From: Moniliella sp. 'wahieum'
Lineage: Eukaryota
Length of the DNA stretch: 64,000 nucleotides
Direction: 5' to 3'
NCBI GenBank assembly: GCA_003971905.1
Contig: RSEE01000004.1
Location: forward strand, 992,001-1,056,000
Under the pieces are notes generated by a model. The model did no database searches and had not been told where the DNA came from. It saw nothing but the letters and a program-made list of their open reading frames with translations. Made by a program: the position numbers and the translations under genes. Below, piece after piece: positions 1,425 through 32,712 of the stretch (position 1 is the first letter of the stretch; every line of letters starts with the position of its first letter).

Positions 1425-1516
1425 CCGTGCGGGGTCACTCCACCCGTAGTCACTAGTCACTACTAGTAGTCGCTGTTCTACCCTCCGATTCGCGCCTCCA
1501 TCTCAGCCCTTTTCTG

Positions 1517-6939: not shown

Positions 6940-9900
6940 GACTAGTGACTCGCGACGGGCCACACAGATGTGCGTGCGACTCCCTGGCCGACAATCGATG
7001 ATTGATGATCGATTATGCATTACGCGTTACGCATTGGCGCACTTGGGCATTGTATGGAGGACTCAGTACTGAGTCTCAGCACTTGGTACTTACCGGACTT
7101 GCCACTGATCACGGATTCCCCGTCTCCTCCATGTCGATGGGTGCACGGCGACGTTGAAAAGGCCGGGGGAGCCCGCTGCTGACCGTCTGGGATTCTGAGC
7201 GCGCTGCGATCTAAGCACGGCGCGGCTGCTGAGCGGCGGAGCCGCTGAGCGCTGAGCAGCTGGCCAGGGGCCTGCGGCCAGGCCATGATCAATGATCGAT
7301 GATCGATATCGATGGTTAGGGGTAGTATTCCGTACAGTACGTGGTAACTGGTGACACTATTGGTGATACAGGGTCGCGGGGGTTCCATGCCACATGCAGC
7401 GTGTGACAGGTCACGCGTCACAGGTCACGCCGGTCACATGGGGTCGCAAAACTGGACAAAAAGCATGGTGCATGGGCGGACGCTCTTCCTTCAAGCTGCA
7501 AGCTTCCGAGCTTCAGCGCGCTTTCTTCCAACTTGCAGCCGACAGAGTATAGGCGTTTGTGCCTGTCATGTCATCATGTCATGCATGCCACGTATCACGC
7601 AGCATACATTATGTGCGGGTGAAGCGTGACCGTGACCAGTCACCGGCAGGCAGCCCAGACGCCGAGATCTGAGGTGTTTGACAGCTATTGTATTCCGGTC
7701 CCTACTGTCTCTCTCTCTTCTCCTTTCCTTCTTCCTTTTTTCTCTCTCTCTTCTTCTTCCCTAGTCCTTGCCTCCCCGCCCCGCCCTGGCTTTTGTATGT
7801 ACGGCTGTATGGAACGCGGGTTGCGTGGCGTGATGTCGGTGACCTGGTAATGCGTAACGCGTAACGTGCGGGCTCGGCCTCAAGCTTCAAAAGCTTCAAG
7901 CTTCAAGAAGTCTCAACGGGCCAGCGCCATTGGCAATCATTAATCATTAAATCAGTTGCACGACATACCTCTGCGGGCGGTGGCAGGCGGGAGCCCTTCG
8001 GTGGCACCAAAAGGATTTTTGGAGTCAACTGAAGGGCTAGATGACTGTGCCCCCGGCACAAGACGAGAGAAAACGTAGGATCGATCCTCGCAACGTCCGG
8101 TCTCTCGTCTCTGCTGCTCGATGTTCCACGGGCCATGTGGTGTGTACCACATGCACCCGGTGCCCCGCAGACATGCTCCAAGCGCAGAAGCAGCTCCGCT
8201 TCCCGCCGCATCACCTGGGAAGCATCGATTATGGGTTAACGTTTTAACGTTTAACGCGTTACGCGCTACGCGTTAACGTTTTCGTTCTTTCGCATTTAGC
8301 CGAATAGGCGTCCTTTCTTCGGGGAGGCCCTGGGAGGCCGCCACTCGCCGGTCAACCCGTGGATGTCGTGAACTCCCGTGACGCGTGAACCGTTCAGCCT
8401 GGGCGCCTCAGCTTTTCATCATCGATCATCGACCGTTTGTCATTAAATCATGAATCACCGGTCACCATCATCAAGTCATCAAAGTCATCGCGTTGGCGCG
8501 TCTGTGACAGAAGGCTGTGTGGCAAAGGAAAAGCAACAGCGGCAACAACTTGCAGCACTAGGCCGCAGCTCGGATATACACCAGGCGGGGTACCAGAGGC
8601 AGGTACGGGTGCATACTGGAGGGAGGTACGAAGGCTACGTATTGAATGAAAAAGTGCATGCTCCCCGTTTCCAGGCACGGGGGCACAACACGCAGAATTG
8701 CAGCAAGCCAGGACGGGGCCACTAGCCACTAGCCACCAGCCATCGGCCACATCGGCGCATCCGCCACCATCTTTCCCGCATTCGCTGCCACATCGTGTTC
8801 CACCTTTCCACGCTGTGCGAGCATGGCCGGCGGTTGACACCGTATGGGCTGGCCCGTTCCCGCTGTATTCGGCACCCTCCGTTCCGACCGCATCGTCTGC
8901 CCTGAAAACGTCCTCGATGTCGATGCGGTCGATCAAAGAACAGATGCCGGGAGGCCTCTCAACTTCACCGGTCACCAGACTCTAGAGGCCGGAGACCGAA
9001 GGTCGGAATGTCCTGAACGTTGAAACGTTGACTAACCTTGCGATGTCATATCATATTTTTTCCATCAAGTCAATTGAAGCTAAGCTGAAGCTTCACTTGA
9101 AGCTTGAAGCTTGAAGCTTGACTAGCAAGTGATTAATGATCAGTGACTAGTGAGTGACAAACGGCCTGCGCTTGGTGCTTGGCAGGCAACCGGGCCGGGA
9201 GCGGGCGTTGGCACACTACTAATAGGGTGTGTCAGACATACATAGGGTCAATCTTTATTGAGCGGCCGCTGCGTAGGGCTTGCCAGGGGCTGCTCCACCT
9301 CGGTTGGGTGTGGTTCTCAACGAGCGGCAAAAGGTGTTGGACGACCCATCGGCTCCCTCTGCTAAGGCGCTAAGGATGGTTGTTGATCGGTGATTAATAT
9401 GCAAGGTGCATATCATATGGATGGTGCAGGTGATGCATGCATGATGTCTGCTTTGCTGACCGGTGACCTGCAGCAGTAAACAGATGTTAAACGGCATCGG
9501 TCTTCCTCTAAGCTCCAGGGCCTCTACTAAGCCCCTAAGGCCTAAGGCTGAGTGTTGCGACGTTGAACGTTGAACGTTGACTGGCTTCACCGATCGCCGG
9601 GCCCGTCCGGCCTCACTAGTCCCGAGTCTCCGCGGGCTCCGAAAGCTGGTGCGCCTAAGCCAACGACTAGTAGCCTTCTCTCGTCCTGCTTCCTACCACG
9701 CCCGCAATCGATCGCTACGCTACTGTCCTAAACGCTTCCGCATCCATTCCGGTTTCCATCGCCGGGTGGACCAGGACGGCGCTACCTCCGGCCCATGGCC
9801 TAGACCGAAGGCCTAAGTCCATGACCGAATCGATACCATCCAAAGTCTTTCCAGCCTTCTCTGCTTGGCGCTTACGGCATCGGATCCCACCCCTCCGGTA

Positions 9901-11200
9901 ACCGGTAACCGGTAACCGGTAACCTCTCGACGATACATACCTATCGGTCGCTGTGGAGGATGATCGGTGATCGGTGATCGGTGATGCATTTTGAATGATT
10001 AATGACTGCATCATGCATCATGCATCACGCGTCACGCAGACACTAGTCACATGCACACATGTCACACTAGCTATCCCTAAAGCAGCCCTCAGCTAGTCAG
10101 CTAGTTAGAGATCGTCAGACCAGGTCAAACCGCCCCAGCAGGCCCCAGCTGGGTCCGTCGGCACGCCACTCGTCTGCGCGGGGACGTTCCTTGCCGTCGA
10201 GCCGATCGTGTGTGGAGGGGCGCGTGCAGGATGCAGGATGCATGATCGATCTGTGGTCCATGGTCGACGTTCTCTCTCTGCTGCGTGGACACGAAAACCG
10301 TTGTCGGCTGCAGAAAAAAGTGGCGCCTGACACATCCGATCCGTTCCCATATCGGTACGCGTTACACGCGTTACACACACGTTACCCGTTGCCACGTTTC
10401 GTAGGGTACGCGGTACGCGTTTAGCGCTTCGCGGCTCCCAGCTGTCTTGCTACCCACGCAACAAGAACAGGCGAGGGAAACGGTTCTGGAATCGAGTTGC
10501 TTCCCAAATAACGAAAAAAAAACTTTGTTGTGATGTGGACTTGCCACCGACCTCAGTGGAACGTGTTGAGTACGTTGAACGTTGACCACGTGCACCTCCG
10601 ACACCAAAACCCTCTTCACTGCTCTCGACCCTGCGGGGCTGACCGATTCAGTTACGCGGGTAAACTGCAACCGAAAAAATTAACCCGCAGGGAATATTCA
10701 TGTGTCGGCAGCCGAAACGGCCCCCTATGCTCTGCCGAAAAGAGCCAAAGCAGCGCATGCCGCATGCCACAAGTCACCACGTCAAAATCGTGTCCATGCC
10801 CAATGTGAGATGCCCTTACGTGTACGCACGTCCAGCATCCATCGTCTCTCTAGGTCCCGTCTCTATTATCTCTCGAATCATTTAATCGTCGGGCATCTCC
10901 AGCAGCATCAAACCCCGACCACGAGAGATGCGAGTCACATGTCACACGAGATCACACGCACCCACCCCTCGGATCGATGTCAGCGATGCCACAGAACCGA
11001 CGAAGAACGATTTGTATTTTGGATCGATAACATGTAGTGCCTGCTGGCTTTACCGGTTACCGGTTACCCCGGTTACCACGGATAAATAATACGGTACCCT
11101 ACGTTCTGGACCATGGTCCTTCAAGTTGAAGCGTCTCACGCGTCTCACGCTGGACTTTGAACTTGACTTATTGAATAAGCTTCAGGCATCAGCTTCATGC
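6940..11200. repeat. Dense field of 7-bp-period arrays of A-NNNN-T hexamer palindromes (intergenic)
   Basis: (AAGCTTG)3 9100-9120; (ACCGGTA)3 9901-9921; AACGTT-G-AACGTT 9566-9578; ATGCAT-C-ATGCAT-C-ACGCGT 10013-10032; ATCGAT-T-ATGCAT-T-ACGCGT 7008-7027; ACCGGT-T-ACCGGT 11052-11064. Confidence 0.9.
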
Positions 11201-12148
11201 CCATGCGGAGTGTGCACCCGCGGGTAGGGTATAATCAAAGCTTCGACGATAATTCAACGTTCATTCCACCCATTCCAGACCCAAGCGACAAACCGAACGA
11301 GAAGGCGCGAAAGCGACCACACCGAACGCACTGCTGTGGGAGGGTCGATGATCGACGATGGAGATCTCGACGATCTCGCACAGAGGAAACCAAACGAGAA
11401 AACGACAGAGACATGCACGGTACAAACGCGTCATATGGGCCTTTGGCAATTTGGTAGCTGGTTATTGCTAGTTGGGAAACGGGGTTCATCGAGACACATC
11501 ACAAAAAGAACGGGACAGTATGGCAGACGTTTCCCTCTGCGTCGTTGGCAGGCATGGCAGGCACACTCCGCCGTGCCCACCGACCCGCGTCCACCTTTCT
11601 TTCTCTCGTGCAATCAACAGCGTAATACCCGACGACGAGCGGACGCACAGGTATCTCGGTGTATACGCAAATGACTCGCACCCTCAGCCCCAGCCTGGAC
11701 TTGGGGTGGGACCGAGTCCAAAACCACCGGGGCGCGATCGAGGTGAGAGGCGTGTGAGGAAAGTCTGACGCCCTGAGGGCCAACCATCAGAGAGAGCGCC
11801 GGATGCCAACATGGGGAAACAAGTCTATAACATCAAGCGACGGAAACCAAAACGAAAGAGACAAAAGAACATTGCATAGAGAGACCGTGGGTCTTTACTG
11901 AGACCTGCGTCCTAAGGCTAAAAAAGGTTCAAAGGCACAAAGTTTGAAGCGAGAAACAACAGTGCAAGGTGTACCATGTCAACCCGCCCGGAAAAAGACC
12001 GTGACCGACTTCCATACGAAGCATGGCAACGAGCGGAAAAACACAAGGTGGGAGCGAGTGGGGTGTGGCGTATAAGAAAGGGAAGAGACTGTTGGGGGAT
12101 ATAGATAAAAGAGAGACGTGCTGGCAAAGCAGGGACAAATCTAGCTGG

Positions 12149-14297
12149 CTAAAGAAGCAAGCTGCTGATCAGGAGAAGGGGCAGTCCAAGGCCCGCAGTC
12201 CAGGAGACGGACGACGCCAGAGTCGCGCCACTCTTGTGGCCTTTGGACCCATCCTTGGACCCGGACGAACTGCCCGGCGAGCCCTGGGACGATGCGGGAA
12301 CACTCGCTCCGGTACCAGTGTAGATGGTGGGCGCATGGCTGTACTTGGTGTTGTTGCTGCCGGGCAGGCAGGGGGGCAAGTGCACTGCCAATGGCCGGGG
12401 TGATGGGAACCACACCAGCCTGGGCCATGTCCACCCCAACCGAAATAAACTTGCCCTGAGACGGCACCCCGCCAATCGTGACAAAGAGCAGAGCCGGACC
12501 CGGGGTGATTAGATTCGGGTTAGGCGGCAACGGGTTGACGGTGTAGACCACACTGCCATCATCCTGAACGGCATAGGTGTTTTCCAATTGGAGAGATCGC
12601 TGGCCCATGTTCATCGCATGGGTTGCAAAGCCGGGGCGAATGACCATGAATTTGGTAGAGGCAGCGAGCTCGTTGGAGGATTGGTTAAAGTACGAAGCCG
12701 GAACAGTCACGTTGAAGGAGGAACCGCCGTAGGGGATCATATCCGGCAAGCCCTGGGGCTCGGGCCGAGGGGCAAAGTAGTCCGGGTACCAGCGCTCCAA
12801 AACATATGTCGTGTTGTAACCCGACGGCGAGGAGCTGAGGGGCATGCTCAGGCTCACGTCCTGGTGTGGGTTGCTTCCTCCAACGAGGACCGACCCATCA
12901 GGGATGAGAATCGCGGTGGAGTGATACAAGCGGGCATAGGGAGAAGCACCGAAGTTGGCACTAGTAAAGCGTTGACCCTTAGGCGCATCGGGGTTGTACA
13001 AGACAGGGGTTGTTGTCGGGCCAGAGGAGAAGCCCTCCAAATTGACAGTCTTTCCATGAAGCTTGATGGTGTTCCAGGTGGTGTTACCGTACCCTGCTGT
13101 GCCGTTCTCGGCACCATTGACGATCAGCATCTGCCCCGTGGGCAGGTGAATGAACTCGCCCATGGTCCGGCCCTGAGGGAGCGCATCGTCTTGCACGAAT
13201 TGGGGGTTGGCAACTGCCGAGCCATCCGCATTTTCTGGTTGAATCGAGGCGCAGTTGGTTGAGGCTGGCGTCTCGTACATGTTGACGTTGGGTGCTGTGT
13301 AGTTACCCCAATCGTTGTCGTTCTCCAGCACAGTGCCGCCACAGAAGAGAATTTCCGGGGTGTATTTGTTGGCCGGCGTGAGCGGCTTCATGGCAGTCGC
13401 TGCCGACGCAGGATACACACGCACCACTCCGCCGGGCGTGTCGGGCAAAGGAGTTTCGACATTTTGGTTGTGGTCCCAGATAATGTTGGAGGTGTTGGCA
13501 TTCATAAAGATCTTGCCGCTTGGCAGGAGGAACATATGGGGGTACATGTTGAGTCCGCTGGTGGTTGTCATGAATTTGGACATTTGCATACCAGCATACG
13601 ATCCCTGTGCGGTAATGTTGGTGCGGTTAGGGAAGTACTCGTAGGTTGGATTGGCACCACCCATAGCGATGTTGGTGATCGAGCCACCCCCACTGGCAGT
13701 TGCGAATGTAGGGTCGGTGTTGGGCGTGTTGCGGTTAATGTACCCGCCTGACGTAGCACCCCAACAATGACAGCCTCACCCGAAGCAATCGTCTCAACGG
13801 TTGGGTACCAGCGAGGGCTGTTCATTCAATGTGACCATCATCATCCCAGTTGAGTGCGCTGTCCTTAACACCTTGAATGTCGAGGAAGCGGATGGCCTTG
13901 CGGCCATCCTCGTCCATGTACGGGTTGGCCGTGCCAGCCAAGGCAGCACCGCCGTATTGGACGGCCTGGTTGCCTCCGACAACGATCCAGGTGCCGTTGG
14001 GCATTGTCGCGCCAGCGGCACAGAAGGTGTTGGTGTTGACATCAACGGCGCGAGCTGAGCCGTCAGTGAGGTCAATAAGCGATCCCCAGACAGGCTTGCC
14101 ACTGGGCAGCTTGGTTGGGTTGCCCTCGACCTTGTCTAGGACGAAGGCAGTGTTGTTGTCAACGAGGCCGAGCATCATTGCGGAGGCGAGGGAATCCTTG
14201 GTAAGACATCGTATGTCAGCGGCGAGCCAGCTTGCGCCGCCGTAGGGCCCAGGGCGGCGGCAGCGGCAAGCGCGATGGAGGCAGCCGGGAGCAGCAT
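12149..14297 (-). CDS. Copper radical oxidase (glyoxal oxidase, CAZy AA5_1) with signal peptide and a C-terminal GPI-like hydrophobic tail; indel frameshifts
   Basis: N-terminal MLLPAASIALAAAAALG; NTFCAAG (Cys), PRWYPTVETI, MYPHMFLLPSG, RVYPASA (Tyr), RLYHS (Tyr-His), GSNP, FATHAMNMGQR (His); Ser/Gly linker then LGLPLLLISSLLL*. Confidence 0.92.
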
Positions 14298-14557
14298 GAC
14301 GGTGGCGAGGTGGGAGGACCGGGGCGGGGGGTGGGGTGGGTGGAGAAGAGAAGGGGCACCCCGACGGCGGCAGAGATGGGAAGGCCAGGGCGCCTCAATA
14401 GCGCTCGCCCTATCCATCTCGCGGTGGGCATAATGCGGCTGTGTGCGTAGTCTGCTGCTGCCTGCCCTGCCGCTGCACTGCTCGGGACTCCGTACACCAC
14501 CCAGCACACACTCGGCAGGCGCTGCTGCTCCTCAGCAGACGCCGAGCGGCGCTGGCC

Positions 14558-14587
14558 GGCAGGCTGCGGCAGGCTGCGGCAGGCTGC
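14558..14587. repeat. 10-bp tandem repeat (GGCAGGCTGC)x3
   Basis: Three exact copies read directly; each contains the interrupted palindrome GCAG-G-CTGC. Confidence 0.85.
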
Positions 14588-14959
14588 GCCGCTGCTCTGA
14601 ATCTGACATCTGACGCGTGACGTGTGACGAGCACAAGGCACACCCAGCGCTGCCTGCCTGCCGCCTGCCGCCCTCCGGCATTCGCTGCGTGGTGCACCCG
14701 GTGCGCCCGCCTCCGATCCGCCGATCCTGGCAGCATCGCGCCAGTGTATCCGCCCCCCGCCCTGCACGGGGTGGGTGGGTCCTTCGATACAGACGCACAG
14801 AAGCACTAGTCATCTTCGCACTCATCGCAAGCCCCATCCGCTCTGCTCCGCCCGGGGTCGCATGGCTGGGGGCACGGAACGCAACATAAAATACACACTG
14901 CTGCCCCGCCTCGCGCCCGAGCAGGAAAATTTGAACCTCCAAATTAGGCTGAAGATCTT

Positions 14960-15835
14960 GAGAGCGTGATTAATGATTGTCGTGAGCGTGATTAACGTGA
15001 TTGAATACTAAATTGACAAGCTAGTCACTCTAGTCACTGTGATACGCGAACGCGATGCATGTGTGACGGGCTCGTCATGCAACGCGTGGTTGTCACGTGC
15101 CATGTTGCTCTGCCTTGCGCAGCAGGCTGCTAAGCCTGCTAAGTTAGCGCTAAGGCTTAGCTTTTAGCGCTAAAAACGCTAAAAGAGTGCGAAGCGCTGG
15201 TATAAGCTCTGGGGAGGGCTGAGGCTGAGGCCTGAGGAGCTGAGGCACAGTACTGCGGCCTACTGCGACCCAATACTCAGTATTATGCCGCGTCGCTGGC
15301 CGCCACCCGTAATCTGGCCGCCCTGCCGTGTCGCTGCTATGGCTGCAGAGCATGTCATGCATCATGCATCATGTCAGTACGACTGATGCTTCCTGTTGCT
15401 CGAAGCAATGTAGCGTTTGTACACAGCCTCCAGCTTGAACAGCTTGAACACGCGACGCTGCATCCCCACAGCGCCGGTCTCGGCAAGAGCTTAGGTAGTA
15501 AGTGATGGTGCAGCATGCTTCGGCGCTTCGGCTTGGAGCAGCTTCAAGCTCTTCAAGGTTCAACGTACTCAACGTTCATACACATCCTGCGTCCCGTTGC
15601 AGTATTCTCACACACACTTGCGCCAGTTGGTACCTCAGCGCCTCAGCTAGCATTCCTGCGTTCAGGCCGAGCGAGCGATCTTCGGCTCCTCGCTTGCAAA
15701 GGCCAGCAACCAACAGTGTGACCTTCTGTGGCGTGGGTGGACGCTTGCATCGCATGTCACATGCTTCACATGCATCACCCAGCCTCGGGCATCGATCACC
15801 ATGCACATCATGCATCATGCATCATGATCGCTGCA
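14960..15835. repeat. Cluster of 7-bp-period A-NNNN-T palindrome arrays upstream of glyoxal oxidase
   Basis: ATTAAT ~14969; TTTTAGCGCTAAAA 15162-15175; TGAGGCCTGAGG ~15226-15237; ATGCAT-C-ATGCAT ~15357-15369 and 15810-15822; ATGTCACATG ~15754. Confidence 0.8.
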
Positions 15836-18800
15836 TGGCACCTCTCTTCTGCTGCGCCCTTCGGTCTTTTGCGCTCCGCTAGGCGTCGCTCCGGCTTTGC
15901 ATGCCACTGCGCCAGAGCCAGCGCGAACAGCTCGCGGACCAACCCCAAGCTGAGGTATGTAGATGTGTATTTGGGCGTTGGGGCGCTTAGGCTCCCCTTC
16001 CCACGCGTGTCCTGCCACGCGAGGCCGCACGTGACGCCCAATCCATAAGAAAAGAAAAGAGTGTGGTGTCTTCGCATGCCACGGTCCTCTCTTTGCCTAA
16101 CAGCAGTAGGCAGACCCACTCTCTATGCCTCGTGGATTCTATTGCCCTCTCAGATCTCAAAACTCCCAGAGGCCTCCGTTGTTTTGTCCTCACCGCCTCG
16201 TCTGTCTCTTGCATTTTTTGCTCCGGTAGAGAGAAAGAAAAATAAGTGAGAGATTCCGATCCTAGTATTGAGCTGCTCCTACATATCCAGTAGGCTCGAG
16301 CATTATATCGTAGTGTAGTCATGCTGTGGGGGCTCTGGGCGCTCCACCTCACCGTTCCTTCTCGCAACCAATTTTCCTTTCTTGCCTTGCTTGCGGCCCT
16401 CTGAATTAAGGGTCTCGCACACATACCCACCCAGGCTGTGCTAGACCAACACAGTTCTCCACATCTTCCCTGACCCGCCTGACCCCCTGACCCCTTTGTG
16501 TGTATTTTCTCTCTCTCATCACACGTTGTTTAGCGTGTGGTTGCGTCTCCATTTCCTCTGGTATGATAAAAGGCATCATTCAAGTATCCGGCCTGAATGA
16601 ATATCAACGTGCAACGACATCCAAAGCAATACCCCCCTCACTCTCAGCGTCCCTCAAGTCGTTAGGCGACCCTGTGGCCAATAAGCGAGGTATGGGTTCA
16701 ATTCGCATTCGAGCGCTATGGTGAAATCCTCGTCATAGTTATTCCTCCAATTAGCAATGTATCAGAGAAACAGGATCAGCAAAGTATAGGGTGAGAAGAT
16801 CGGTCTGCTGTGCTCACATGGAGGACCGTGTTAACAGACATCCAGGTCCGCGCCCCCATATCCTCCCCCATCTCGTCCCACACTTTGGGGCGATTATGGA
16901 ATGGATACGTACTCCATTTGGTAGTACTATTCTTGGATGATCCTGTGTGTCCATCATCTCTCCGTTCTGCCTCTCGTCTTTGTACAAAGGCCATCTTTCG
17001 CGCCATCGGCACATCGTTTAAAGCCGGCATCACTTCAGTTACCGTGCCCTTTTGTCCTTATACACGGTATATTATTCCGGGAAAGGCGGGATCCATCTGC
17101 CTGATGAAGCACCAATCAACTCATCTTATCGGCATCTCTCGATTCAGTGAAAGCTCATGACCACAGCATTGGTGGCTATGGCGGCTATAACAGTAAGACT
17201 GGACTATTACAGCTGAGTGTTGTGCATGTGCACGTCATATGATGTGTCGTAGCATTTCCTTTTTGTTGTGAGCAAAGCAAAGAAGGAAGTAGCGAGACCG
17301 TGGCCATGAGATGGGCCCGGGTGCATGGGCACAAGAAGAGAGGGGGGGGGTTCAGCAGAATGGGGCACCGCGTGGCACAATGTTTGCTATATAGTGACTG
17401 CCTAGTGTACGTGTGAACAGGGCTATAATGTTGGGAGGTGGTGCCAAATGGATTAACTAGGAAGCTGTAAAGAACCATCCTAATCGACTGTGGGATAGTA
17501 TCTGGTGCCTTCATACCCTCCATTCAATAGAATCGTCCTATCAAAAATTCATTGGCAGGTGCCACTTAACGACAGACTTCGTCTCCACAACCTGATCGCG
17601 CGTACATACGCGCCCCAGCTTGTCGAAGTCGCACCAAGCGTCAATGTATCGTCGATTCAGTCTCACTCTCCTTTGTTTGATCAAAACTACACGCAATCGC
17701 TTCCACAAAAAGTCCAATGTATTTGACTATGAACGAATCGCTGTGGCACAGCCGTTAGTTCAAAACAAATCGACCCTCTCTTCCACTCTGAGAGAAACAC
17801 GAAGACAAGGTGTGAACCGCCAATTCGCATGACATTTCTCCTTTATTTTGTTCGGATGCGCCTCGTCCCCCAGCTCGCAAAGAACTGTGCGAATTGAAGA
17901 ATTTAGAGGGTGCGTATCGACCACAGTCTGTGCATTTGCCCATCGCCGTGCAGAAATATATAGGTGTACTGCGAAATGTTTTAGATCATAGAAGAAAACA
18001 GGGTCAGGCTCGACGATCTCATAGGGCCAACTACTGATGAGAGTTGGGGGGTCGAGGGTGACGCTATCGCACTGGTGGTGGTTACGATTAAGCCGGCCAG
18101 CAATGCCTGTAGTGGAGCTTGACATCAAGCAGCGAGTCGTCACCAAGGGCTAAGCTGCCGAACGAAGAAAACACAGGAGAGAGAAAACAAGGAAACTCCT
18201 AGGCATGAGGAGAGGAACTGTCGGGGCGTTGGCCAAAGCACGAACTACTCTCCAGTGTCTCACCAGCAGTCAACAAGCGTCACTCGCGTCACGTTGCCAT
18301 TACACACAGGACTATGACCCCCACAGTTATATTCTCCCGAAGCACAGGCCAACATCGGCATGTGACCATCATCGCTCTTCCTCTGAGTGAAGTCTTGTTA
18401 GTTAATGACGTGGTCACCGCGTAGCACTGCGAAAGCTTCTGGGCTAAGAGAGATAATGGACCGTCCAATGGCCTGCTCCACATAAGGATCATCCACAGAG
18501 GTTCAACATCGGGCGGCCCCACGAGAAGTTTTGAGCGTTGGCCTCTCCATCGTTGCCAACTCTCACTGGCAGTTTTGGCATATAATACAAAAAACTTTTT
18601 TAGATGTCTGCATCTAACCAAAAACCCTTTGGTATATTCACGGGTCGTCGACGACCTAGGTGCCACTTTGTGACGATGTAACTACTGCATTCATACTGTT
18701 TTCGAAATTCGCGACATGGACAGAAACGCTGGACCCATACCGGAGGGGTTAATTGCTCATCCACCGGCGTATGTGCGTGTATTGTCCAACTCAATCAACA

Positions 18801-19859: not shown

Positions 19860-22800
19860 ATGCCCGCCTCTGCTCCTCGGCCCATGTCCATGTGGGCTGG
19901 CGAGCACCCCAGCCGCGATCGTGCTCATGCCGCTTCACTGAACGCCAGCGCCACCTCCAACACCGCCACCCCCCACCGGCGAGGGACTGCTCTCCAGCGT
20001 CTCCCGCCTTTTGCCCCGCCCCCTCAGTTGGTTCGCCCGCTCCCCTGCTCCCGGAGATTCTTCCAACGTAACTGCCGACGGGGACTCGTATGCGGCCAAC
20101 GCATCAGATCGGCTCGCCCCTCCCTCCCGTGCGTTGGCGCCCAGTCGCCGCCAGACGCCGCGCCTGCGCCAGCGGACCCGGGCGCGCGTTCTCCACGCCC
20201 GCGATCCTCCGCTTCTCCCGCCATCTCTCCCCGTCCAAGTCGCCTGCGCGTGCCTGGTTCATACGAGCCAAACGATGTGCTTTCTCCCCAAGTTGGCGCT
20301 CCTGCTTCGCCACATCTACTGCCCAGCCTGGCTGCCCGCCCCCACCACACACCCAGTCGTCTGCGCCGCTCCTTTCTTGGTGACCACTCCATCACATTTG
20401 GCGCCTCGCCTGGGCTTCGCTTCCAGGGAGTCGCTCCAGCGGCCGACACTTCGCTTGCTCCCAGCACTGCGGCCGATGTCTCAATTTCCGTTTCCCGCCC
20501 CGCCGCATCCCCCAGCCCCCATCCAGCTTTAGGCAAGCACGTTCGGCAGCTGGATGAGGGCGGCGCCACCTCCCTCCTTTCAGGTTCGGGCAATGTTTCG
20601 GTACGCGGCTCCTCCCCCCCCCAGTGCGAACGGTTACTGACTTATATCATCTTCAGCAGGTCGGAGACAACCCACGAAAACGTCGGGCAGTCATGTGGGA
20701 CCCGAAGGAAGGTTTCCTTACCCCTGACGAGCATGGGGCAGTCCACCCACCAACGCCGGTGGCAAAGAACGAGGCCGAGAGGATCTTGCTGGCCTTGGAG
20801 CAAATCCAGAAGGACGCTCGTCCTCTCTCCCCCCCGCAAGTGGGGGACTGAACCGTCTTCTGGCCCCAGTCCCTGTGCCTATTCCTGCACCCGACCAGGT
20901 GCGCAAGGCGACGACCTCGGGCCAACAGCATGGCCCCGTACACCCGTATGGCGGCTCAGCAGGCAGAGCAACGCAGTGGCGCTGCTCGTGTTCCCCACTC
21001 GCTCCGTTCTCGCATTCGGCAGCAAGCGGAGCGTTCCGCGCGGCGGCGCAACCAACCTCATAGTACTGCACCGACTGAGGCGGACGCTAGCTCTGCTTCC
21101 GCATCCGAGGCTGAGGAACCAGAACAGGATGGTGCCGCGAAACGTCACCGGTCCTCCCCTAAGGCCGCTCCGCCCGCTAAGCGGCGGGCCTTGGCCCCAC
21201 CAGTCCCGACAATGACGGTGATGCCACCGAGAATGGAGAAGCCGATGTGACGAACGAATTGAACGACACTACAGCGCAAGACGTGTTCAAGGTGGTGGAG
21301 AGGGGCGCGGAGGGCACGTTCAAACCGTACCCAATTGCGGAAAGATGGTGACCGTGTCAGTCGGAAGAGCGGCCATGTGTCCGTTCGGCCTTCGCAACGT
21401 ACCAAACCTGGGAATCGGATTCGAGTCGAAAGCGATTCAGACGAGGAGGCCGAGGTCGAGAAGGCGAAGACCATTAAAGCGATTCAATCGGTTTCCATTG
21501 CACTCCATTTCCCAGCTGGGTTCAAGTTTGGCGCGGCACTCGGAACCAAGTCGGATGTTCGACCGCAGCCGGTCCGGCCCGGGACAGGCGCAGTCCGGCG
21601 TCCACAACCGCCCAAGCCGAGCAAAATCTCCTTCAACTGTCCCAGTCTCAATCTTCTCTCTCTGAGCCCCCCAGTCGCAGTCGCAGTCGCAGTCCCAACC
21701 CCAGTCTCAGTTTCAGCCTTCTTCTCAATTGGCATTGCCGGCCCCTCCATCTGCTTCCACCCCTGCCTCGTCAAAACCGGTTGAGCTTCAACCCACTGAC
21801 ATTCAAGAACCGCGAGGAAGAGAGCAAGTCGTCTGGTCCTTCGCTCTTGTCGCGCATGGGAGGCCCTCCAGCTGCCTCTAGTGAACCAGCGAAGCCCTCC
21901 TCAGCCTTTCAACCGTTTTCCTTCGCCCCACCCGCCAAGAAGGAGGAGCAGGTGAGAAGAAGCCTTCTGAACCAACTACGACACAGGCGAAAGAAAACCC
22001 CCCATCTTTCTTTGGTATTGCTGCTGGAGACAAGAAGGATAGCACGGCCAAGCCTTCGTTCAACTTCGGCGCAGCCGCTGCCACTTCCTCTGCTGTACCT
22101 GCCGATGCAAACAAGGCACCGGCTAAGCCCGCTTTTTCGTTTGCCACTCCCGCTTCCGCCGCCACTCCTGCGGCGTCTGAGACCAAACCTACCCCATCTT
22201 TTTCATTCGGTGCCAAGCCCGCCGACAAGCCAGCAGAACCAGCCAAACCCTCGTTTGCCTTCGGAGCCCCCAAGGTTTCTGAGGAGAAGAAGGATTCTCC
22301 AGCTCTTGCTCCTTCGCCTGCACCTATTGCCTTTGGCGTTCCGAAGACTACAGAAGAGAAGAAAGAAAACCCTCCTGCCTTTGCATTCGGTCTTCCTAAG
22401 CCAACCGATGAGAAGCAGAACGCCCCCTCTCCCTTTTCGTTTGGCAATAAGCCATCAGACAAGCCAGCCGATGCGCCCAAGCCAGCCTTTGCCTTTGGCG
22501 CGCCCAAGCCGGTTGAGGAGAAGAAGGACACACCGACTCCCTTGTTTGGAAACGACAAGAAAGATTCCGCAGTAAGCTCTGCGTCCCCTTCCACCCAGCC
22601 AACCCCTGCCCCTGCCCCTGCATTTGGGGGCGCTACAAGCCGGGTCTGTCGAATGGGACTGGATTTGGCTTTGGTTCGACTGCGTCCGCGCCCTTCGGAC
22701 AAAAGTCTAGTGCGGCCCCTTCGGAACCAGCCAAGCCGTCGTTTTCCTTTGGTCCACCCAAGACGGAAGAGGAAAAACCTGCAGGCAACACCTCCACCCC

Positions 22801-23869
22801 TGCGTTCAGCTTTGGGGGGGATGCGGCCAAACCTGCCGCAGCCGCATCGCCATTCACCTTCGGCCAGTCTTCGGAGAACAAGCCTGCTCAGGGTTCGGCG
22901 CCCGCCTTTTCATTTGGTTCTGGTGCCTCTACTCCCGCGTCGACCGACCAGGGCAGTAAGCCTACCTTTGCCTTTGGAGCTACAAATGAGACTAGCACCA
23001 AACGGCGCGCTGACGACGACAGCGAGCCACCAAGTAAGAAGCCATCCTTCTTTGGAGGTGCGACGGGTGGCTTGAATGCAGACAAGAGTGCCAAGCCGGC
23101 GTTTTCGTTTGGCGCAGCAGGAAGTGACGCCAAGCCGGCCAATGGCTCAGCCACTTCTAGTCCGGCTCCCACGTTTGCATTTGGTGCTCCCGCAGCGGCC
23201 CCACCTGCCTCCACGGGTGGGTTTGGTGGGTTTGGCTCTGGAACGGCTACGCCCACATTCAACATGGGCGCTGCTCCAAGCGCACCATCGGGGACCGGGA
23301 CGGGGACGGGCGCGTTCACCTTTGGTGCACCCGCGCCTTCAGCTCCCGCTGGGGGAGAGGCCAAGATGGACGATGCAACCAGCACGGCACCCAGCACGGT
23401 ACCCACCACTGGCTTCTCGTTTACAGGAACAACAGCTCCTTCCACCCCCCTTCACGTTTGGTGCCCCGGCGGCCGGTAGTGGTACGTCGACCCCTGGTGC
23501 GGGGACAGCGCCGACTTTTACGTTTGGTGCGCCCTCAGCAGCCCCTGCGTTTACATTTGGTGCACCTGCAAGCGCACCAGCGTCGTCCGCTGTCCCCAAT
23601 GGCGGTGCTTCGGCTCCCTTTACCTTTGGAGCGTCCAATCCGATCCCTGCGTCAAGCGCACCGGCACCATTCAGCTTTGGCGCCGGGGCCGGAGCTGGGG
23701 CTGCTGCACCGAATGGTGGAATGATGTTTGGCGGCGGTGGTGCGGCGCCCGCGCCCACGCCCGGCGCACCAACCTTCAACATTGGTGCTGGGCCCACTGG
23801 TCCGGCTGCGGCCACGCCCCGGGCGGACGGAGGATCCGAGGTCTGCCTTCTCGCGCGCGGCGTGCGTAA
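19860..23869 (+). CDS. FxFG-repeat nuclear-basket nucleoporin, Nup1/Nup153-like; many indel frameshifts
   Basis: Ser/Pro-rich N-terminal half with TPVAKNEAERILLALEQIQKDARP; dozens of FSFG/FAFG/FTFG repeats with Lys/Glu spacers; bipartite NLS-like KRRADDDSEPPSKK; basic C-terminus GRRIRGLPSRARRA* (TAA 23867-23869) typical of Nup1/Nup153. Confidence 0.8.
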
Positions 23870-24164
23870 GGGTGGTTGGTGTTTGACTCTACCGGTGTTG
23901 TTGTCACCGCTTTCTTCTGCCTCCCTTGTATCTTCCCCTTCGCGGTGGACCCAAACGATTTTAATTCTTTGGTTTTGCCCAGGCCGCACTGTTATTCGTT
24001 TGCTTTCAATTGGCGCCGAACTTACAAAGCCGTTCAATAGCTTAGAGAGAGGGGATGTCCAACGAACTTCGCCCATGGGCGCTAGAGGTAACTGGTGGAG
24101 TGGTATAGATTCCTGATGTGCTCTTTTTGGGTCTGGGGTCACAATGAAAGAGAAGGAGGTCGCT

Positions 24165-25150
24165 CTGATGATCGATGAAGCTTGAAGCTTGAAGCACAAG
24201 AGATAAACCCGATAAAGGTATTGTCCATAGTGGAGGGACTGTTGCCTTGTAACCCAACTGCTCTCTGCCGTAGCTAGCGAAGGTGAACACAGGATGAGAA
24301 ATGAGGCGTGAGGGAGAAGCCCGCGCAGGGGGGCATCGCGTTGTAATATACATCGTGTGCCATCCAGGCTAGGGGCCTGTGTACTGCGAAGACTCACAGC
24401 GCAGGCGTTAGCGCTTAGCCGTCGTCGTTCCCCACGGCACACGACCCTTTTCTGGAGACAATAGTAGAAGGATGAATCGATGAAGGGAATGAGTTTTGCT
24501 TCTGTGAGTAGTAGAGATAGTGAGTAATGCCTGTATACTAGGTGTCAGCGGCACCGATCCCTATCAACATTGGTGCAGATGATTGATGTGCGTGTGGGTT
24601 GCTGAGCGCTGATATACCGCCGGAACGAGATGCCCAAGATATAGATTAGGGCCAACAGGGTTTGGAGGGAAGAGATCCGGGTGGCATCTGAACTGAAAAT
24701 CTGTGAATATTTACAACGGCGCAAGCGGAGCCAAGACCGGGGTATGTATACAATAGCGAGCAACTGCTGTATGACTGGTGTGGCGCAATGATTAATGAGG
24801 CCCTGAGGCCTGAGGCTCAGGCCTGAGGGAGCCCGGCAGGGCCTCAGATCTAAGACGGAAGAAACAGACAAAGTGGATTCGCGATTCCAGTGGGGCGTTG
24901 GACTGGCGTTGTGGGAGGCTCGCATCCTCGAGAACCGATCATCGATCATCGACAGAATTCGCGGATGCGGACGTGAGGCAGTGCGCCCGTGCCGTTGAGA
25001 TTGGACCCCGGGATTGGGCCCCGCTTAGGGTGCTGCTTAGTACTAGACAAGCAGGCAGCAGAAGACTTGGCGCTACGCCTTAAGCTTTCAGCCACACGCG
25101 TGACATCATGCATTGCATCAACCACGTCAACGCGTCCACGTTCAACTAGC
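24165..25150. repeat. 7-bp-period palindrome arrays upstream of the amino-acid permease
   Basis: ATCGAT-G-AAGCTT-G-AAGCTT 24171-24190; ATTAAT 24791-24796; AGGCCT 24806-24811 and 24819-24824; AGATCT 24846-24851; ATC-ATCGAT-C-ATCGA ~24938-24952. Confidence 0.85.
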
Positions 25151-25591
25151 TAATACCGTTGTCTAGTGAATATATGGGTAGTGCCTTTCTTGGGATGCGT
25201 TTACACGCCCTCAGACGACGGCTCACGCATCGTGTTCATCCTAATGTTTACGTTTTTACCGAGCATCGAATTATATGCCTTCCTGCGGGAATAGAAGTAT
25301 GTAGTTTCCGTTGAGGTGGAGCGAAAGGCCGGGACGAGTGTGTGCCACCTTTCTTCCCCCGCAGGAGCACCAATGCATATCCACACCAATTATTCCCCTG
25401 TAGCACAACTATTCTCGTACGTTGATCTCCTGGGGGTCCGCTTCACCGGGGATTCACCGTAGCATCGCTGTTGTCCTTCCCTGCCAGGATATATATATTG
25501 GAGGGGCAACCCGCACCTTACTCCCCAAGCATAATTTCGCTCCAAGTTTGCTTTCACACCTCCCCACCACTGCCACAGTACATTCACCGGC

Positions 25592-27951
25592 ATGCCCTTC
25601 CAGTGGATGCTCTCTCGCTTCCGACCCGGCACCAAGAACGATGCCAACAGTGGCTGCGAAGACGACTTCGCCCACCCACCTCCGCCTTTTGATCCCGTTG
25701 GCGTGTACCCCCTGGATAACTTGGGCACCGTTTCTGAGCCATCCCGTATGACTGTATCCCAACCTCAGTCTGGGGCCATGCCCCACAATTTCCGTTTCTC
25801 ATCAGCCTTCTGCGAGCACCAACAGTGGCACCAAACCATCCCTGACCACAAAGAGGACGATATGGATGAACTGAAAGAGCAACTCGAGGCCGAAAAGGAG
25901 TCCCAATCATGTGACAGTAGCTCCCATCACCCAATAGACGGAACATCCGCTCCGGCCTTATTGCTCAAGGATGTTAAGCTTTACCCCTCCACCACCATCC
26001 CAACACTCGCCCTCGACCGCGAAGCCAACCCAGTTGAACCAACCGGCCCTGTTGTTGCTGTACAGTCGCAGCAGCAAAGCTGGAGCCATGCTGTCGACCA
26101 GTATGCTGGACCACTCAGGACTATGGAGACATTCAAGGCGTTCATGGCGAAACCCGCGGTCTCATCTTTCGTGAGTTTGGCTTACGGGTGGAATCAAGCC
26201 GCGACAGTGTGTATCTCTTTCACCTTTACGTCACGAAGCTCCAGACACATTCTGACCCTTTTCACGTTTAGTGTGCAGATGATCGGCTTGAGTGGTGCCT
26301 GCGGCACCGGCATCTGGCTGAGCATGGGCCAATCTCTCGCCACCTCTGGGCCTCTTTTTCTCTTCTTGGCGTACCTTATCACAGGCACTATCGTATCGTC
26401 CATGATGCTCAGTCTTGGTGAAGTGGCCACGCTGGCACCCACCACGGGTTCGTACATCGCTCATACCTTCATGTTTACGTCAAGCAGTGCTGGCTTTGTC
26501 GCGGGTATCAATTCCGTGGCAGGCAATTGTTTGGCCTTAGCAAGTGAGCTATGCGGGTGTGCTGTACTTGTTCAAGTACGTTCGTATATACCTCACAGTT
26601 TGCAGAGAGCAAACCAACTGACCCCTTTCTTGTCTCTGACATATTCAGTACTGGACCGACATCTCCCCCGCCATCTTTATCACAATCTTCGGGGTAGCAA
26701 TCGTGTTGGCAAACATTGTCGGTGAGCACATGTCCCCCTTCCACTTGCATTTATTTGCTCTTTTCGTTTTTGCATATCGGGCATTTTGCCAGAACAAAAG
26801 CTGATTTTCCATCTCTTTCCCCGTTAGTTGTGCGTGCGTGGGCTGAAGTGGAGTTTATCGCTGGTCTCTGCAAACTCTTACTCTTTACTGGGCTCATGAT
26901 CTTGTCACTTTGCATTGACCTTGGGAGTGGCCCAAAAGGAACGCGCCTTGGCTTTCACTACTGGCATGATCCAGGTCCGGTTAGCCAGTACCTCCTGGAA
27001 GGTGGGGCAGGTCGATTCTTTGCTTTTTTAACGGCTCTTTGTGGCTCAGTCTTTTCGTATGGTGGAGTGGAATCGATTAGCCTTGCTGCCGCTGAGACGG
27101 CTACACCGCGCCGGACAATGCGCAAAGCCACCAACCGAATCTTTGTCCGTGTCTTCGTCTTGTACCTGTCCGTCGCGTTGGCCACTGGCATGATCGTCAG
27201 TCGCACCGACCCTGCACTTCTAAACTCTACTGGAACTGCATCGCAAAGTCCTTTTGTGACCGCGGCTCGGCAAGCAGGAATCAAGTCCTTGGGAGGCGTG
27301 ATCAACGCTGCGGTTCTTATCTCTGCTTGGTCTACCGCGGACCAGACGGTTCTCAATGGTTCCCGATCGCTCCTCATGCTTGCGGCAGACGGCTTGGCAC
27401 CGAAGGTCTTCCTGCGTGTCCACCGTTTTGGCGTACCATGGGTTGCCGTCTTATTCATCTGTAGCTGGATGTTGTTGTCTTACACCATTGTGTCTTCTTC
27501 CGCTACCCGGGTATTCTCAATCCTAACCGACTTGGTGGGTGCCTCACTCCTGTGGACCTGGATTTTCATCTGCATCAATTTTCTCAAGGTATATTATGGC
27601 CTTCGGGCTCAGAATATCTCACGTTCTCAACTGCCTTGGGCCACGCCGTGCCAACCATTTTGCATGGTACGCGCTTACCGGCTGCGTCCTCCTCCTCCTT
27701 CTCGGTGGCTTCTCTATCTTCGTTCCAGGTCATTTTCAGGTGGACGACATGCTCTCTGCATACGCCTCCCCGTCATCAATCTCGCTCTCTGGCTTGGGTA
27801 CATGATCTTGTGGAGCGGATGGGATTGGGTAAAACTGACAGAGGTACCTCTTCAGCCTTGGATCTTCCAATTCCAAACCGGAACTCCTGAGCCGTGCGAG
27901 GCCCCACCCCGTTTCTGGCCGCTACGCCTCATTTCTTGGATCTGGATGTGA
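25592..27951 (+). CDS. Amino-acid permease (APC superfamily, fungal YAT type); introns ~26171-26275, 26576-26648, 26722-26827; start uncertain
   Basis: QMIGLSGACGTGIWLSMGQSLATSGP, SLGEVAT, WAEVEF, LGFHYWHDPG, FSYGGVESISLAAAETATPRR, RIFVRVFVLY, SPFVTAA, SRSLLMLAADGLAPK, GVPWVAV; canonical splice signals. Confidence 0.9.
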
Positions 27952-28709
27952 TCTGTTCCGACTCCCTTTTCTTCTTCAATTGAACGTGACTCCCTAGCCT
28001 CTTCTGTAGCTCATGAGCAATGCATCAATACCTGCTCTCTTTGGTCTTTAACAACACAGCGTGGGCGCAAGAGATGAGATGTACAGACTACCCACTGATG
28101 GGACCCGGAGCGTTCGGAGGATCAGGAATGGAGGTGGGCCACACGCTGCGCGACACGGGAACGCAAGAGGCGCAGAGCGCGTCCCAGAAGGTGGTGCATG
28201 GCAGCACCGTGATGCCTTTGGAATGCCGGGAGAAGGAACTTCTTCGACTGTTAGAACAAGCAGAATGCGACAAGAACGCCAAGGTGCCAGGGATGAGAGC
28301 CCAAGAGCCGGTTTTCCCCCTGGTTTTGAAGACACGAGGATACTAGGGAACCAAGACAGCGGGCAAGATGCTTGGGCACTGGAAGTATTTGAGTACTGAC
28401 TCTCAATGGAGATGGTTCACCGTACGTTCACCCCTCGATGTCTACCACTTTCATCCGTATCCACATGCGCTTCCTCGATTACGGGAACGGATGGCGGGCA
28501 CCAGTGGGTCCAGATCTCCTGTGGCGATCCTCCAGGTTCCTTAAGCGGGGTTGGCGCTACTGCAAGCAGCACACGCAAGATGAATGGTCGGTTTAGGCGT
28601 AGCGTTTCCCTGCCCCAGCCTTAAGCTCTGTCAATGATATGGATGCCAAGTAGAAAAAAGGGGCCAGAAAACAGGGCGGAGGTAGACCATACACCTGGGG
28701 AGGCCTGGG

Positions 28710-29365
28710 GCCTGACATGCACCTGACACTTGACATGTGACATGCATGACAGGAGGAGAATTCAGGGACATGTGCAGAGATAACAACGATAGTTATTATG
28801 TCTTTTGACGTCTCTCTCCTAGTCCACACAGTAGTCTCCATATGGTTTTGTGCGCACACCACAAAACGAGAAGAGTTGCAACGTTTTGTTCATGTTGGCT
28901 AGTACCTAGTTCTCATAGTTAGACTCTCCTGAGGCGGCCTGAAAGGCTTCTGTTGGCCTGAGGCTTGAAGCTTGAGGAGCCTGAGGCGGAAAGCGCGTAA
29001 CGCGTAAGGCCTGAGGCCTGAGGGGCCTGACACCCCTGGTGGTCCTGATAAGGATGCCTCTAAGATACCGCGCGTACCTGGCAGAGGTCCTATCTACTAG
29101 CCTGTCCTAATAACTTGTGTGTGGGGGAGTGAAATTGAATCCCCCCCCCCAGAAAGAGCCAGGGTAGATGGCTTTAATCCGGTGTATAGTGCGCTGATGG
29201 GGGCTGATGCGCTGATACGGGGTATAGTATTGGGGGAGTGTGGACTGATACACTGATGGGACTGATAGTTCGAGCAAGCGGGGCTACGCGCGGCTACGAG
29301 AGCCCCTCTTCCGCTCAGAGCTTCAGCCTTCAAGCTTCAAGCTTCAAGCTTTAGCGCTTCAGCGC
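28710..29365. repeat. 7-bp-period palindrome arrays upstream of the OPT gene
   Basis: TGACATGTGACATG ~28731-28744; ACGCGT-A-AGGCCT-G-AGGCCT 29000-29019; AAGCTT-C-AAGCTT-C-AAGCTT-T-AGCGCT 29332-29358. Confidence 0.88.
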
Positions 29366-29791
29366 CCTCGGGCCGCCTCCTGTGGGCAGGGCCGCGAGGA
29401 TCCACCTGGGCAGGGTTTACTTATTAGCCGCAGAGAGTCTGAAAGTTTTGAACGCCCAACTATCGATACTGGCTCAGCGCCACATGTCTTGTAGATATCG
29501 AGCTCACTGGCCCCGCCCCAAGGAATGGTCACCGGTCAGAGACCAGAAGTCAGCCCTGTAAGGCTATCATGATCGTGATCTCAGAGGTTCCCCGTGCCAC
29601 TAACAGGATCACACTAGCCGATTGTCTGAACGCACACAAGACATCCAAAACACTCATGGCAACTCCCGCTGGCCCTGATCGGACTGCTTTCCCCACTCGG
29701 GTTGGTCTCTCTCCTTCACCTCTTTTTTCCTGCTCCTCCATCACCTGCAACTCCACCGTACCTTCGCCACCTCCCCCTCTTCCGTTTCATT

Positions 29792-32627: not shown

Positions 32628-32712
32628 AATTTTCCTTCCTCCTTCTCTTCCCTCTTCCCTCTTTCCTCTTCCCTCTTCCCTCTTCCTCTCTTCCTCTTTC
32701 CACCTCTCCCTT
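32628..32712 (+). repeat. Polypyrimidine tract with degenerate CTCTTCC units in the OPT 3' region
   Basis: About 80 nt almost entirely C/T, e.g. CTCTTCCCTCTTCCCTCTTTCCTCTTCCCTCTTCCCTCTTCC. Confidence 0.8.

Follow-up and report, generated by a model that had tools for sequence, protein, structure and literature searches.

How do different six-base palindromes come to stand side by side in one and the same 7-bp register? The question is raised by a stretch of 64,000 nucleotides from the fungus Moniliella sp. 'wahieum' (assembly GCA_003971905.1, contig RSEE01000004.1, forward-strand positions 992,001 to 1,056,000; hereafter the window, in which position 1 is the first nucleotide), whose intergenic DNA carries short tandem arrays of heptamers built from a palindromic hexamer and one spacer base. 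In some arrays the palindrome changes from one unit to the next and the register is kept. A preliminary description had pointed out this mixing, which would have to exceed chance to be meaningful, and had argued that it needs paired compensatory changes, so that either selection maintains the symmetry or one half of a palindrome is templated from its neighbour. Here, we found that the first part of this proposal holds and the second does not: the excess over chance is an in-register placement of unrelated palindromes, whereas broken units dominate among the neighbours and symmetry is lost at about the rate that neutral decay would give. All evidence from the window stems from this one stretch, in which genes were called from open reading frames (ORFs) only; the samples are small (30 A..T arrays, 9 mixed A..T pairs), and several of the P values given below belong to tests that were picked after inspection of the data.

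Heptamer arrays and the rule of their unit

Exact tandem arrays with a period of 7 bp occur 43 times in the window, compared to 2.9 +/- 1.7 in 20 simulations of it by a first-order Markov model. They comprise 2.0-4.3 head-to-tail copies over 14-30 bp and, as tandem runs of short units, resemble microsatellites; they depart from these in that the sequence of the unit is constrained. A cyclic unit that contains a 6-bp palindrome was found in 31 of the 43 arrays (simulations, 0.15), and in 30 of them the unit follows one rule, A-xyy'x'-T plus one spacer base, i.e. a palindromic 4-bp core flanked by A and T. The remaining palindromic array is flanked by G and C (GCATGC), and the flank classes C..G and T..A are not represented. 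Among the 12 arrays with non-palindromic units, 5 are by our own reading one mismatch off the rule. Within the rule the arrays are diverse, with 11 of the 16 possible 4-bp cores and at least 13 classes of heptamer.

This palindrome bias was absent at periods 5 (a 4-bp palindrome plus one base), 6, 8, 9 and 10. At period 5, 21 of 87 arrays carry a 4-bp palindrome, which matches the simulated 15.6 of 51; at periods 8 and 9, a hexamer of this kind is held by 2 of 9 and 3 of 12 arrays, respectively, and period-6 arrays of bare palindromes are unremarkable. Even palindromes of at least 8 bp (gap 0) are not enriched either (46 versus 39.8), and the excess of palindromes at gaps 1 and 3 is due to the arrays themselves. 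The arrays concentrate in five dense tracts of 8.9 kb in total (Table 1), where 141 of the 509 A....T hexamers (27.7%) have a palindromic core, compared to 4.2-9.7% for each other pair of flanking bases and 6.5% in the remainder of the window. Accordingly, T-N-A triplets recur 111 times at a lag of 7 bp and 17-41 times at the other lags from 3 to 13. No regular long-range spacing of the clusters, as nucleosomes might impose, was detected (coefficient of variation of the gaps 0.73, flat autocorrelation), nor did we find adjacent inverted arrays, the long-hairpin layout of bacterial heptamer arrays; where two arrays of one type face in opposite directions, more than 1 kb separates them. The main period-7 arrays outside the palindrome rule are CT-rich polypyrimidine tracts at 7690-7760 and 32633-32705, the second of which is a decayed 7/14-bp repeat of CTCTTCC.

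The spacer is G or C in 23 arrays and A or T in 7. Its orientation is mixed within each tract, with about 13 versus 10 relative to the downstream gene by our tally, and since the spacers thus face either strand a role at the RNA level is unlikely. A candidate function in RNA or as stop codons was rejected on this ground; the tracts contain neither an Rfam family nor a tRNA.

How are the arrays delimited? Of the seven phases in which an array could begin with respect to its palindrome, six are represented, which led us to reject fixed-phase models of staggered cuts or footprints. The phase of an odd palindrome was found in 8 of 30 arrays, and a block of hexamer plus spacer bounds only 2 of 30. 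Exact repeats tend not to end at the T or at the spacer, and the duplicated block resembles 'core plus T-N-A' more than 'hexamer plus spacer'. In 13 of the 18 arrays of 2.0-2.4 copies the full hexamer exists only at the junction, so that the duplication itself creates it. The sequences next to the arrays (n = 62) are mostly unrelated to the unit (48 with at least 4 mismatches in 7), 14 resemble decayed units, and no flanking sequence common to arrays of the same type was found. Thus the arrays consist of head-to-tail 7-bp duplications without a fixed phase, which decay by ordinary substitution with CpG transitions prominent among the changes.

Mixed arrays and the decay of symmetry

All eight mixed arrays of the preliminary description (7008-7027, 8254-8280, 9100-9126, 9132-9151, 10013-10032, 24171-24190, 29000-29019 and 29332-29358) were recovered, together with five more in-register cases at 8224, 9984, 10238 (ATGCAT-G-ATCGAT), 11023 (ATCGAT-A-ACATGT) and 60333. 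Measured from start to start, different A..T palindromes form 9 pairs at a distance of 7 bp and 12 at 14 bp, and 0-2 at each distance from 8 to 13 (9 versus a mean of 1.0, Poisson P ~1e-6). Given the frequencies and the density of the monomers, 2.04 mixed pairs would be expected within the dense tracts, where 9 were counted (P = 2.7e-4), and a random relocation of the 125 runs gave on average 1.77 and at most 8 mixed pairs in 5000 trials. Counts from monomer frequencies, distance controls and relocation hence agree that different palindromes share the 7-bp register beyond chance. The excess belongs to the A..T class: the 36 palindrome pairs at distance 7 divide into 18 with the same and 18 with different palindromes, and the nine mixed pairs that are not A..T/A..T (at 2242 and within 33772-63327) fit the chance background. 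With positions held fixed, the in-register pairs of the dense tracts comprise 16 of the same palindrome and 9 mixed, a majority as slippage gives. Chains of at least three units, each with at most one mismatch and at least two of them perfect, occur 14 times in the window; 20 simulations yielded 19 zeros and a single 1.

Is the symmetry of the units maintained? We compared each intact unit with the hexamers at +/-7 bp and used offsets of 9-17 bp as controls. Neighbours that differ by one change, all of which break the palindrome, number 30 (control 5.1), and 7 of these changes are CpG to TpG/CpA. Neighbours with two changes are mostly asymmetric, 47 with two base pairs broken (control 17.8) and 6 with one (control 0.5), and only 5 are symmetric pairs (control 0.6). 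The symmetric share of 5/58 is compatible with the neutral 1/15 (binomial P = 0.34), where the units compared are paralogues within arrays and not polarised substitutions. The proposed need for compensatory change by selection or half-to-half templating is thus not borne out. Indeed, two of the five symmetric pairs are ATGCAT/ACGCGT and differ by two CpG transitions, one per strand; the one-hit forms ACGCAT (7029) and ATGCGT (7850) stand in or beside ACGCGT arrays of the same tract. Two others are ATCGAT/ATGCAT, an adjacent central CG/GC change, and the fifth is ACGCGT/AGGCCT.

Mixed pairs that differ at all four core positions are more frequent than expected (4 versus 0.9, P = 0.012), i.e. 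unrelated palindromes abut. When mixed junctions of the window and of the metagenome loci described below are taken together, 6 of 11 differ by one half-site change, compared to 40% for a random choice of cores, so that descent of one neighbour from the other is not evident. The chain at 6994-7034 can be read as two adjoining arrays, one of ATCGAT and one of ACGCGT, each of which shows CpG-to-TpG/CpA decay, and an 8-bp palindrome at 8253, AACGCGTT, is AACGTT with its central CG doubled.

Genomic setting and occurrence in other DNA

Table 1. Arrays, tracts and genes of the window, and mixed arrays of metagenome contigs
Feature	Position	Strand	Description
Mixed chain	6994-7034		ATCGAT-G ATTGAT-G ATCGAT-T ATGCAT-T ACGCGT-T ACGCAT-T
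Mixed chain	8236-8280		AACGTT / ACGCGT-T ACGCGC-T ACGCGT-T / AACGTT-T
Mixed chain	9096-9151		AAGCTT-G x3 then ACTAGC; four bases off register, ATTAAT-G ATCAGT-G ACTAGT
Longest homogeneous array	9895-9924		(CCGGTAA) x4.3, i.e. ACCGGT plus spacer A
Mixed chain	10006-10032		CTGCAT-C ATGCAT-C ATGCAT-C ACGCGT-C; the TCA-plus-4 frame runs on to ~10105
Mixed chain	10225-10250		ATGCAG-G ATGCAT-G ATCGAT-C; central CG/GC swap
Dense tract 1	1100-1500		5' of short-chain dehydrogenase ORF (adh_short, 1825-2385(+)); TGATGCA x2.3 (1204), ATGTCAC x2.1 (1256), TAGTCAC x2.3 (1447); CCGGTAA x2.0 inside a decayed 5.4-copy array (1300-1336)
Dense tract 2 (main)	6900-11600		Between Myb gene 5' end (-) and glyoxal oxidase 3' end (-)
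Dense tract 3	14400-16500		5' of glyoxal oxidase gene; (TCATGCA) x2.7 at 15355, (CATCATG) x3.0 at 15806; also 10- and 14-bp palindromes at 15144-15175
Dense tract 4	24100-25100		5' of amino-acid permease gene; mixed chain ATCGAT-G AAGCTT-G AAGCTT-G (24171-24195); (CCTGAGG) x2.1 (24802), (CGATCAT) x2.4 (24936)
Dense tract 5	28700-29400		5' of OPT oligopeptide transporter gene; (TGACATG) x2 (28731); mixed chains ACGCGT-A x2 with AGGCCT-G x2 (28993-29023) and AAGCTT-C x2, AAGCTT-T, AGCGCT-T (29328-29358)
Myb-type DNA-binding protein gene	4554-6580	-	Domains in ORF 4554-5723; ORF 5231-6580 may be the 5' part
Glyoxal oxidase (copper radical oxidase) gene	12141-14394	-	Pfam and protein relatives
Amino-acid permease gene	25592-27951	+	Two ORF pieces
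OPT oligopeptide transporter gene	30390-32109	+	Start probably further upstream
Metagenome contig L011			AACGTT-A x2 then AAGCTT-G x3
Metagenome contig L046			AAGCTT-C x2, AAGCTT-T, ATCGAT-T x2
Metagenome contig L085			AAGCTT-G x3 then AGGCCT
Metagenome contig L050			AAGCTT then AATATT
Metagenome contigs L026/L040			AAGCTT-G runs then AACGTT with TG spacers

The window has a G+C content of about 57%, and its ORFs carry Pfam domains of glyoxal oxidase, amino-acid permease, OPT transporter, Mpp10, a pyruvate-dehydrogenase-type E1, a Myb factor, a short-chain dehydrogenase and a fusion of carbamoyl-phosphate synthase and aspartate carbamoyltransferase (CAD); a codon-bias track proved too crude to separate coding from non-coding DNA. 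Relatives of the glyoxal oxidase ORF stand at 89%, 84% and 74% protein identity, and the best named ones, from Pseudozyma, Ustilago, Sporisorium, Violaceomyces, Malassezia and Exobasidium, are 56-60% identical. Judged by its protein relatives, the source of the window is a fungus of the smut/Malassezia subphylum that belongs to none of these genera. The main tract contributes 14 exact A..T heptamer arrays, with 79 hexamers of the type A-palindromic 4-mer-T in bins 7001-12000, and none of the 11 ORFs within 6518-11674 that were tested against Pfam reaches the cut-off. Arrays are absent from the 600 bp that adjoin the 3' end of the glyoxal oxidase gene.

Other repeats share this DNA with the arrays. 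Telomere-like interstitial G-rich repeats lie beside palindromic heptamer arrays at 1367-1424 and 7314-7322, with GGTTAGGGG at 1392 and 7314 and (TTGGGGGG) x2.8 at 1403-1424. Just upstream of the glyoxal oxidase gene, a perfect 10-bp repeat, (CGGCAGGCTG) x3.2, occupies 14557-14588, and longer palindromes based on AGCGCT, interleaved with GCTAAG/CTTAGC fragments, are found at 15120-15190, namely TTAGCGCTAA at 15144 and 15164 and the 14-bp TTTTAGCGCTAAAA at 15162. The longest perfect palindromes of the window, the 18-bp TGCCCCTGCGCAGGGGCA (47130-47147) and the 16-bp GACTCAGTACTGAGTC (7060-7075), both lie outside heptamer arrays. The CAD gene (39804-46966, minus strand) is split into at least 4 ORF pieces in different frames, which implies several introns or frame breaks, and a tRNA-Ala (AGC) at 57679-57751 (minus strand) is the sole match to an RNA family in the window.

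Is the unit rule private to this genome? A scan of metagenome contigs for the AAGCTT heptamer in three copies yielded at least 121 stretches; the whole collection is estimated to hold about 1300. Contigs of roughly 50-54% G+C with short eukaryote-like ORFs carry further A..T heptamer arrays and in-register mixing (Table 1), which suggests that the rule is not restricted to the genome of the Moniliella window. A different palindrome stands in register at 4 of 242 metagenome array flanks, compared to about 1 per control offset. The arrays of the contig pair L026/L040, 99.1% identical, are themselves identical, which says little over some 60 bp. For L046, protein look-ups gave weak matches, with Aspzincin_M35 below the Pfam cut-off, so that calling it fungal is a guess. 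We observe the rule beyond the window genome, on thin evidence.

Scans of metagenome and viral contigs also met a widespread phage or bacterial element of low G+C content, distinct from the fungal arrays, in viral contigs (L122-L179) and in about a third of the metagenome stretches (L001-L121; 44/120 by our rough signature). It consists of a conserved leader of about 35 nt ending in ...GTC, followed by heptads in which GCTTG is constant and two bases vary, the AAGCTT heptamer being one of the resulting forms. The contigs L038 and L120, which are 94% identical, differ in how many of these units they carry and in what order. In the viral contigs the AAGCTT heptamer in three copies was found in 58 stretches, a flank-swapped version in 11 and a scrambled one in 10, a comparison that bears on the intrinsic propensity of the heptamer but is confounded, since many of the 58 appear to be one element.

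Origin of the arrays and of their mixing

With a probability of roughly 40%, we tentatively favour that the arrays are heptamer microsatellites of short lifetime, which slippage creates and point mutation erodes, with a filter for A..T palindromic units whose basis this reading leaves unexplained. The arrays would arise by replication slippage or 7-bp duplication, and only units of the form A-xyy'x'-T plus one base would often be made or kept. A period of 7 may be preferred as the shortest that allows a 6-bp palindrome to be repeated in tandem without generating a long perfect palindrome. Two adjacent units could form a 5-bp stem with a T-N-A triloop, and such a slip-out might favour duplication or escape loop repair. 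Different palindromes could then adjoin by two independent hits on symmetric CpGs (ACGCGT to ATGCAT), by a central dinucleotide that is changed or doubled next to its neighbour (CG/GC; AACGTT to AACGCGTT), or by a second array that arises or is re-amplified beside an existing one in a shared T-N-A frame. A symmetry-restoring process is not needed for any of this mixing. Structure-forming short repeats are reported to stall the polymerase, to stay short and to be prone to point mutation (PMC7441554), a pattern that matches the low copy numbers and the heavy decay of the heptamer arrays.

Several observations weigh against this reading. If instability of hairpins were decisive, a more stable fold should produce a stronger effect. 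In model folds of three units, however, the energies are -5.4 (G..C), -5.3 (C..G), -2.96 (A..T) and -3.10 kcal/mol (T..A), and the two better-folding flank classes supply 1 and 0 arrays compared to 30 for A..T; hairpin energy as the cause of the A..T rule was therefore rejected. Nor are palindromic arrays longer, with a mean of 17.4 bp compared to 17.1 bp for the other 12, so that there is no direct sign that they expand more. Array ends are distributed unevenly over the phases, with 14 of 30 arrays bounded at an edge of the 4-bp core (hand-worked chi-square, P ~0.006). The class of the spacer is fixed per palindrome (permutation P = 0.0018), which a purely structural filter does not predict, and certain heptamers recur, ATCGAT+G/C in 6 arrays, AAGCTT+G/C in 5 and ATGCAT+G/C in 4. 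Finally, the five dense tracts are all upstream (5') of ORFs that match a protein family, as far as ORF-based gene calls allow, and set beside them arrays are absent from 46967-48150 on the 5' side of CAD. A rule that is not energetic, recurring heptamer words and a promoter location together keep a regulatory reading alive.

Possibly, although we lean against it, the arrays are selected cis-regulatory elements, in which A-NNNN-T palindromes one base apart would take up one protein dimer per 7 bp, perhaps cooperatively, with slippage supplying the copies and selection keeping the intact ones. This would account for dense tracts upstream of dehydrogenase, Myb factor, glyoxal oxidase, amino-acid permease and oligopeptide transporter genes next to array-free DNA at the glyoxal oxidase 3' end and upstream of CAD, for the sequence-specific rule, for favoured heptamers with a fixed spacer class, for the AAGCTT and AGGCCT arrays common to both transporter promoters, and for an exact 7-bp hexamer spacing that is kept even where the spacers differ. 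A precedent is offered by the 8-bp met boxes of MetJ and the 7-bp heptads of the plasmid omega repressor, head-to-tail dyad units that bind one dimer each, to our knowledge the only architecture in which such arrays have a proven function. Those units, however, have one fixed sequence read by a bacterial ribbon-helix-helix protein, whereas the fungal cores vary freely and a protein that binds them is hypothetical. At least 11 cores are too many for one factor, and at least 13 heptamer classes do not form the small vocabulary expected of factor sites; we also know of no fungal factor family that reads A-NNNN-T, and the motifs may resemble MCB, Myb or CGG-type sites. Related neighbouring units are mostly broken palindromes at a near-neutral ratio, so that purifying selection on single units must be weak, if it acts at all. 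The intergenic location alone would be expected, since coding sequence cannot hold 7-bp repeats.

The remaining explanations differ in what they make of the junctions. An improbable one is that arrays beget arrays: repair synthesis would copy short palindromic arrays into break sites by microhomology priming, where a 3' end that is palindromic could pair with every copy, whichever strand carries it, and template switches would join arrays at the T-N-A frame. The mostly sharp ends, the arbitrary phase, the unrelated flanks and the length of 14-30 bp would all follow, as would mixed junctions that are exact and without extra bases, the presence of the same heptamers at several loci and the tie between palindrome type and spacer class. 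Arrays of the same type share no flanks, however, so that direct signs of copying are missing; that unrelated metagenome contigs carry the same heptamers favours an intrinsic preference over common descent, and the A..T rule is left unexplained. We consider it very doubtful that symmetry is restored by templating one half from the other or from a neighbouring unit, i.e. by hairpin or quasi-palindrome template switching, a process that can produce several 'compensatory' changes in one event and make imperfect inverted repeats perfect. The adjoining of different perfect palindromes beyond chance would fit, and three two-change junctions from the window and the metagenome are central CG/GC swaps. 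Yet such switching needs arms and a loop long enough to fold, and a 6-bp palindrome has no such arms and cannot self-fold; an inverted neighbour as template would complement the spacer, which is seen in 1 of 14 chains (10231-10250); and even palindromes of 8 bp or more are not enriched. The neighbour statistics carry no symmetry-restoring bias: the symmetric pairs number 5, the asymmetric neighbours 30 with one change and 53 with two. Scars of cut-and-paste transposons are equally hard to credit, either as tandem 7-bp target-site duplications or as 3-bp T-N-A duplications with two bases left by each inverted terminus, although the two terminal bases would make a palindromic 4-bp core automatically and the arrays lie in promoters. 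Basidiomycete transposons with 7-bp target-site duplications do exist, hAT7 in rusts and Kyakuja in Agaricomycotina, as has been reported (PMC12730594). These share with the fungal arrays a tandem 7-bp duplication and the phylum; the arrays differ in having no fixed phase, many units and up to 4.3 copies. The 3+4 model requires arrays that start with T and end with A (0 of 30), no more than 8 of 30 fit the phase of a symmetric 7-bp target, at least 11 cores would need as many element families, and no element was met in the window, with no transposase family among the 41 ORFs scanned. Chance, or an artefact of assembly or cloning such as polylinker contamination, can practically be dismissed: the hexamers are all familiar restriction sites, but the enrichment is about 15-fold for arrays and about 200-fold for those with a palindromic unit, chains are nearly absent from the simulations, only 1 of 31 palindromic arrays has G, C or T at the first position, the arrays are spread across 30 kb of otherwise ordinary intergenic DNA, and similar ones occur in independent metagenome contigs.

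How do heptamer arrays of this kind compare with known repeats? The work of Murat, Guilbaud and Sale on structure-forming short tandem repeats is said to deal with units of 1-6 nt. These repeats can adopt hairpins and carry many point mutations, and a balance of slippage and decay is reported to set their length and keep it short, much like the arrays described here (Murat, Guilbaud and Sale 2020, PMC7441554); the fungal unit differs in its 7 nt, in its strict form of A, palindromic 4-mer and T plus one base, and in flanks that fold energy fails to predict. Bacterial heptameric repeats (GGGNATC; Xanthomonas, Nostoc) share the period of 7, the intergenic location, the low copy number, the many loci per genome and a unit able to form a non-B structure, but each genome is reported to have one G-rich, quadruplex-forming unit, for which four copies are preferred (Rehm et al. 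2015, PMC4692102). The arrays of the window lie in a eukaryotic host and comprise at least 13 heptamers that have in common only dyad symmetry and the A/T flanks. HIP1 of cyanobacteria, GCGATCGC, is likewise a short palindrome far above expectation without a settled function (PMC5861425), but it is a single fixed 8-mer, dispersed rather than tandem, and bacterial. Thus, none of the compared systems shares the rule of A, palindromic 4-mer and T plus one base, and no description of it was found in the literature searched, a search whose coverage leaves out most subscription journals.

It is conceivable, if rather unlikely, that a sequence-specific, non-thermodynamic process writes or protects such heptads in fungal promoters. 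Its agent could be a small dimeric DNA-binding protein that polymerises every 7 bp and reads the outer A/T and the dyad, or alternatively a dimeric nuclease or repair activity acting at the borders of the 4-bp core. If so, the arrays would represent an undescribed eukaryotic cis-element or mutational signature that is common to other fungi as well. In any case, every array offers a natural experiment, as the substitutions in it can be tallied as symmetric or asymmetric. Should the rule hold genome-wide, it would be an unusually strict constraint on a class of eukaryotic microsatellites, explained neither by composition nor by fold energy, and it would point either to a hitherto unknown activity that binds or repairs DNA or to a new route by which symmetric sites appear in promoters and vanish from them.

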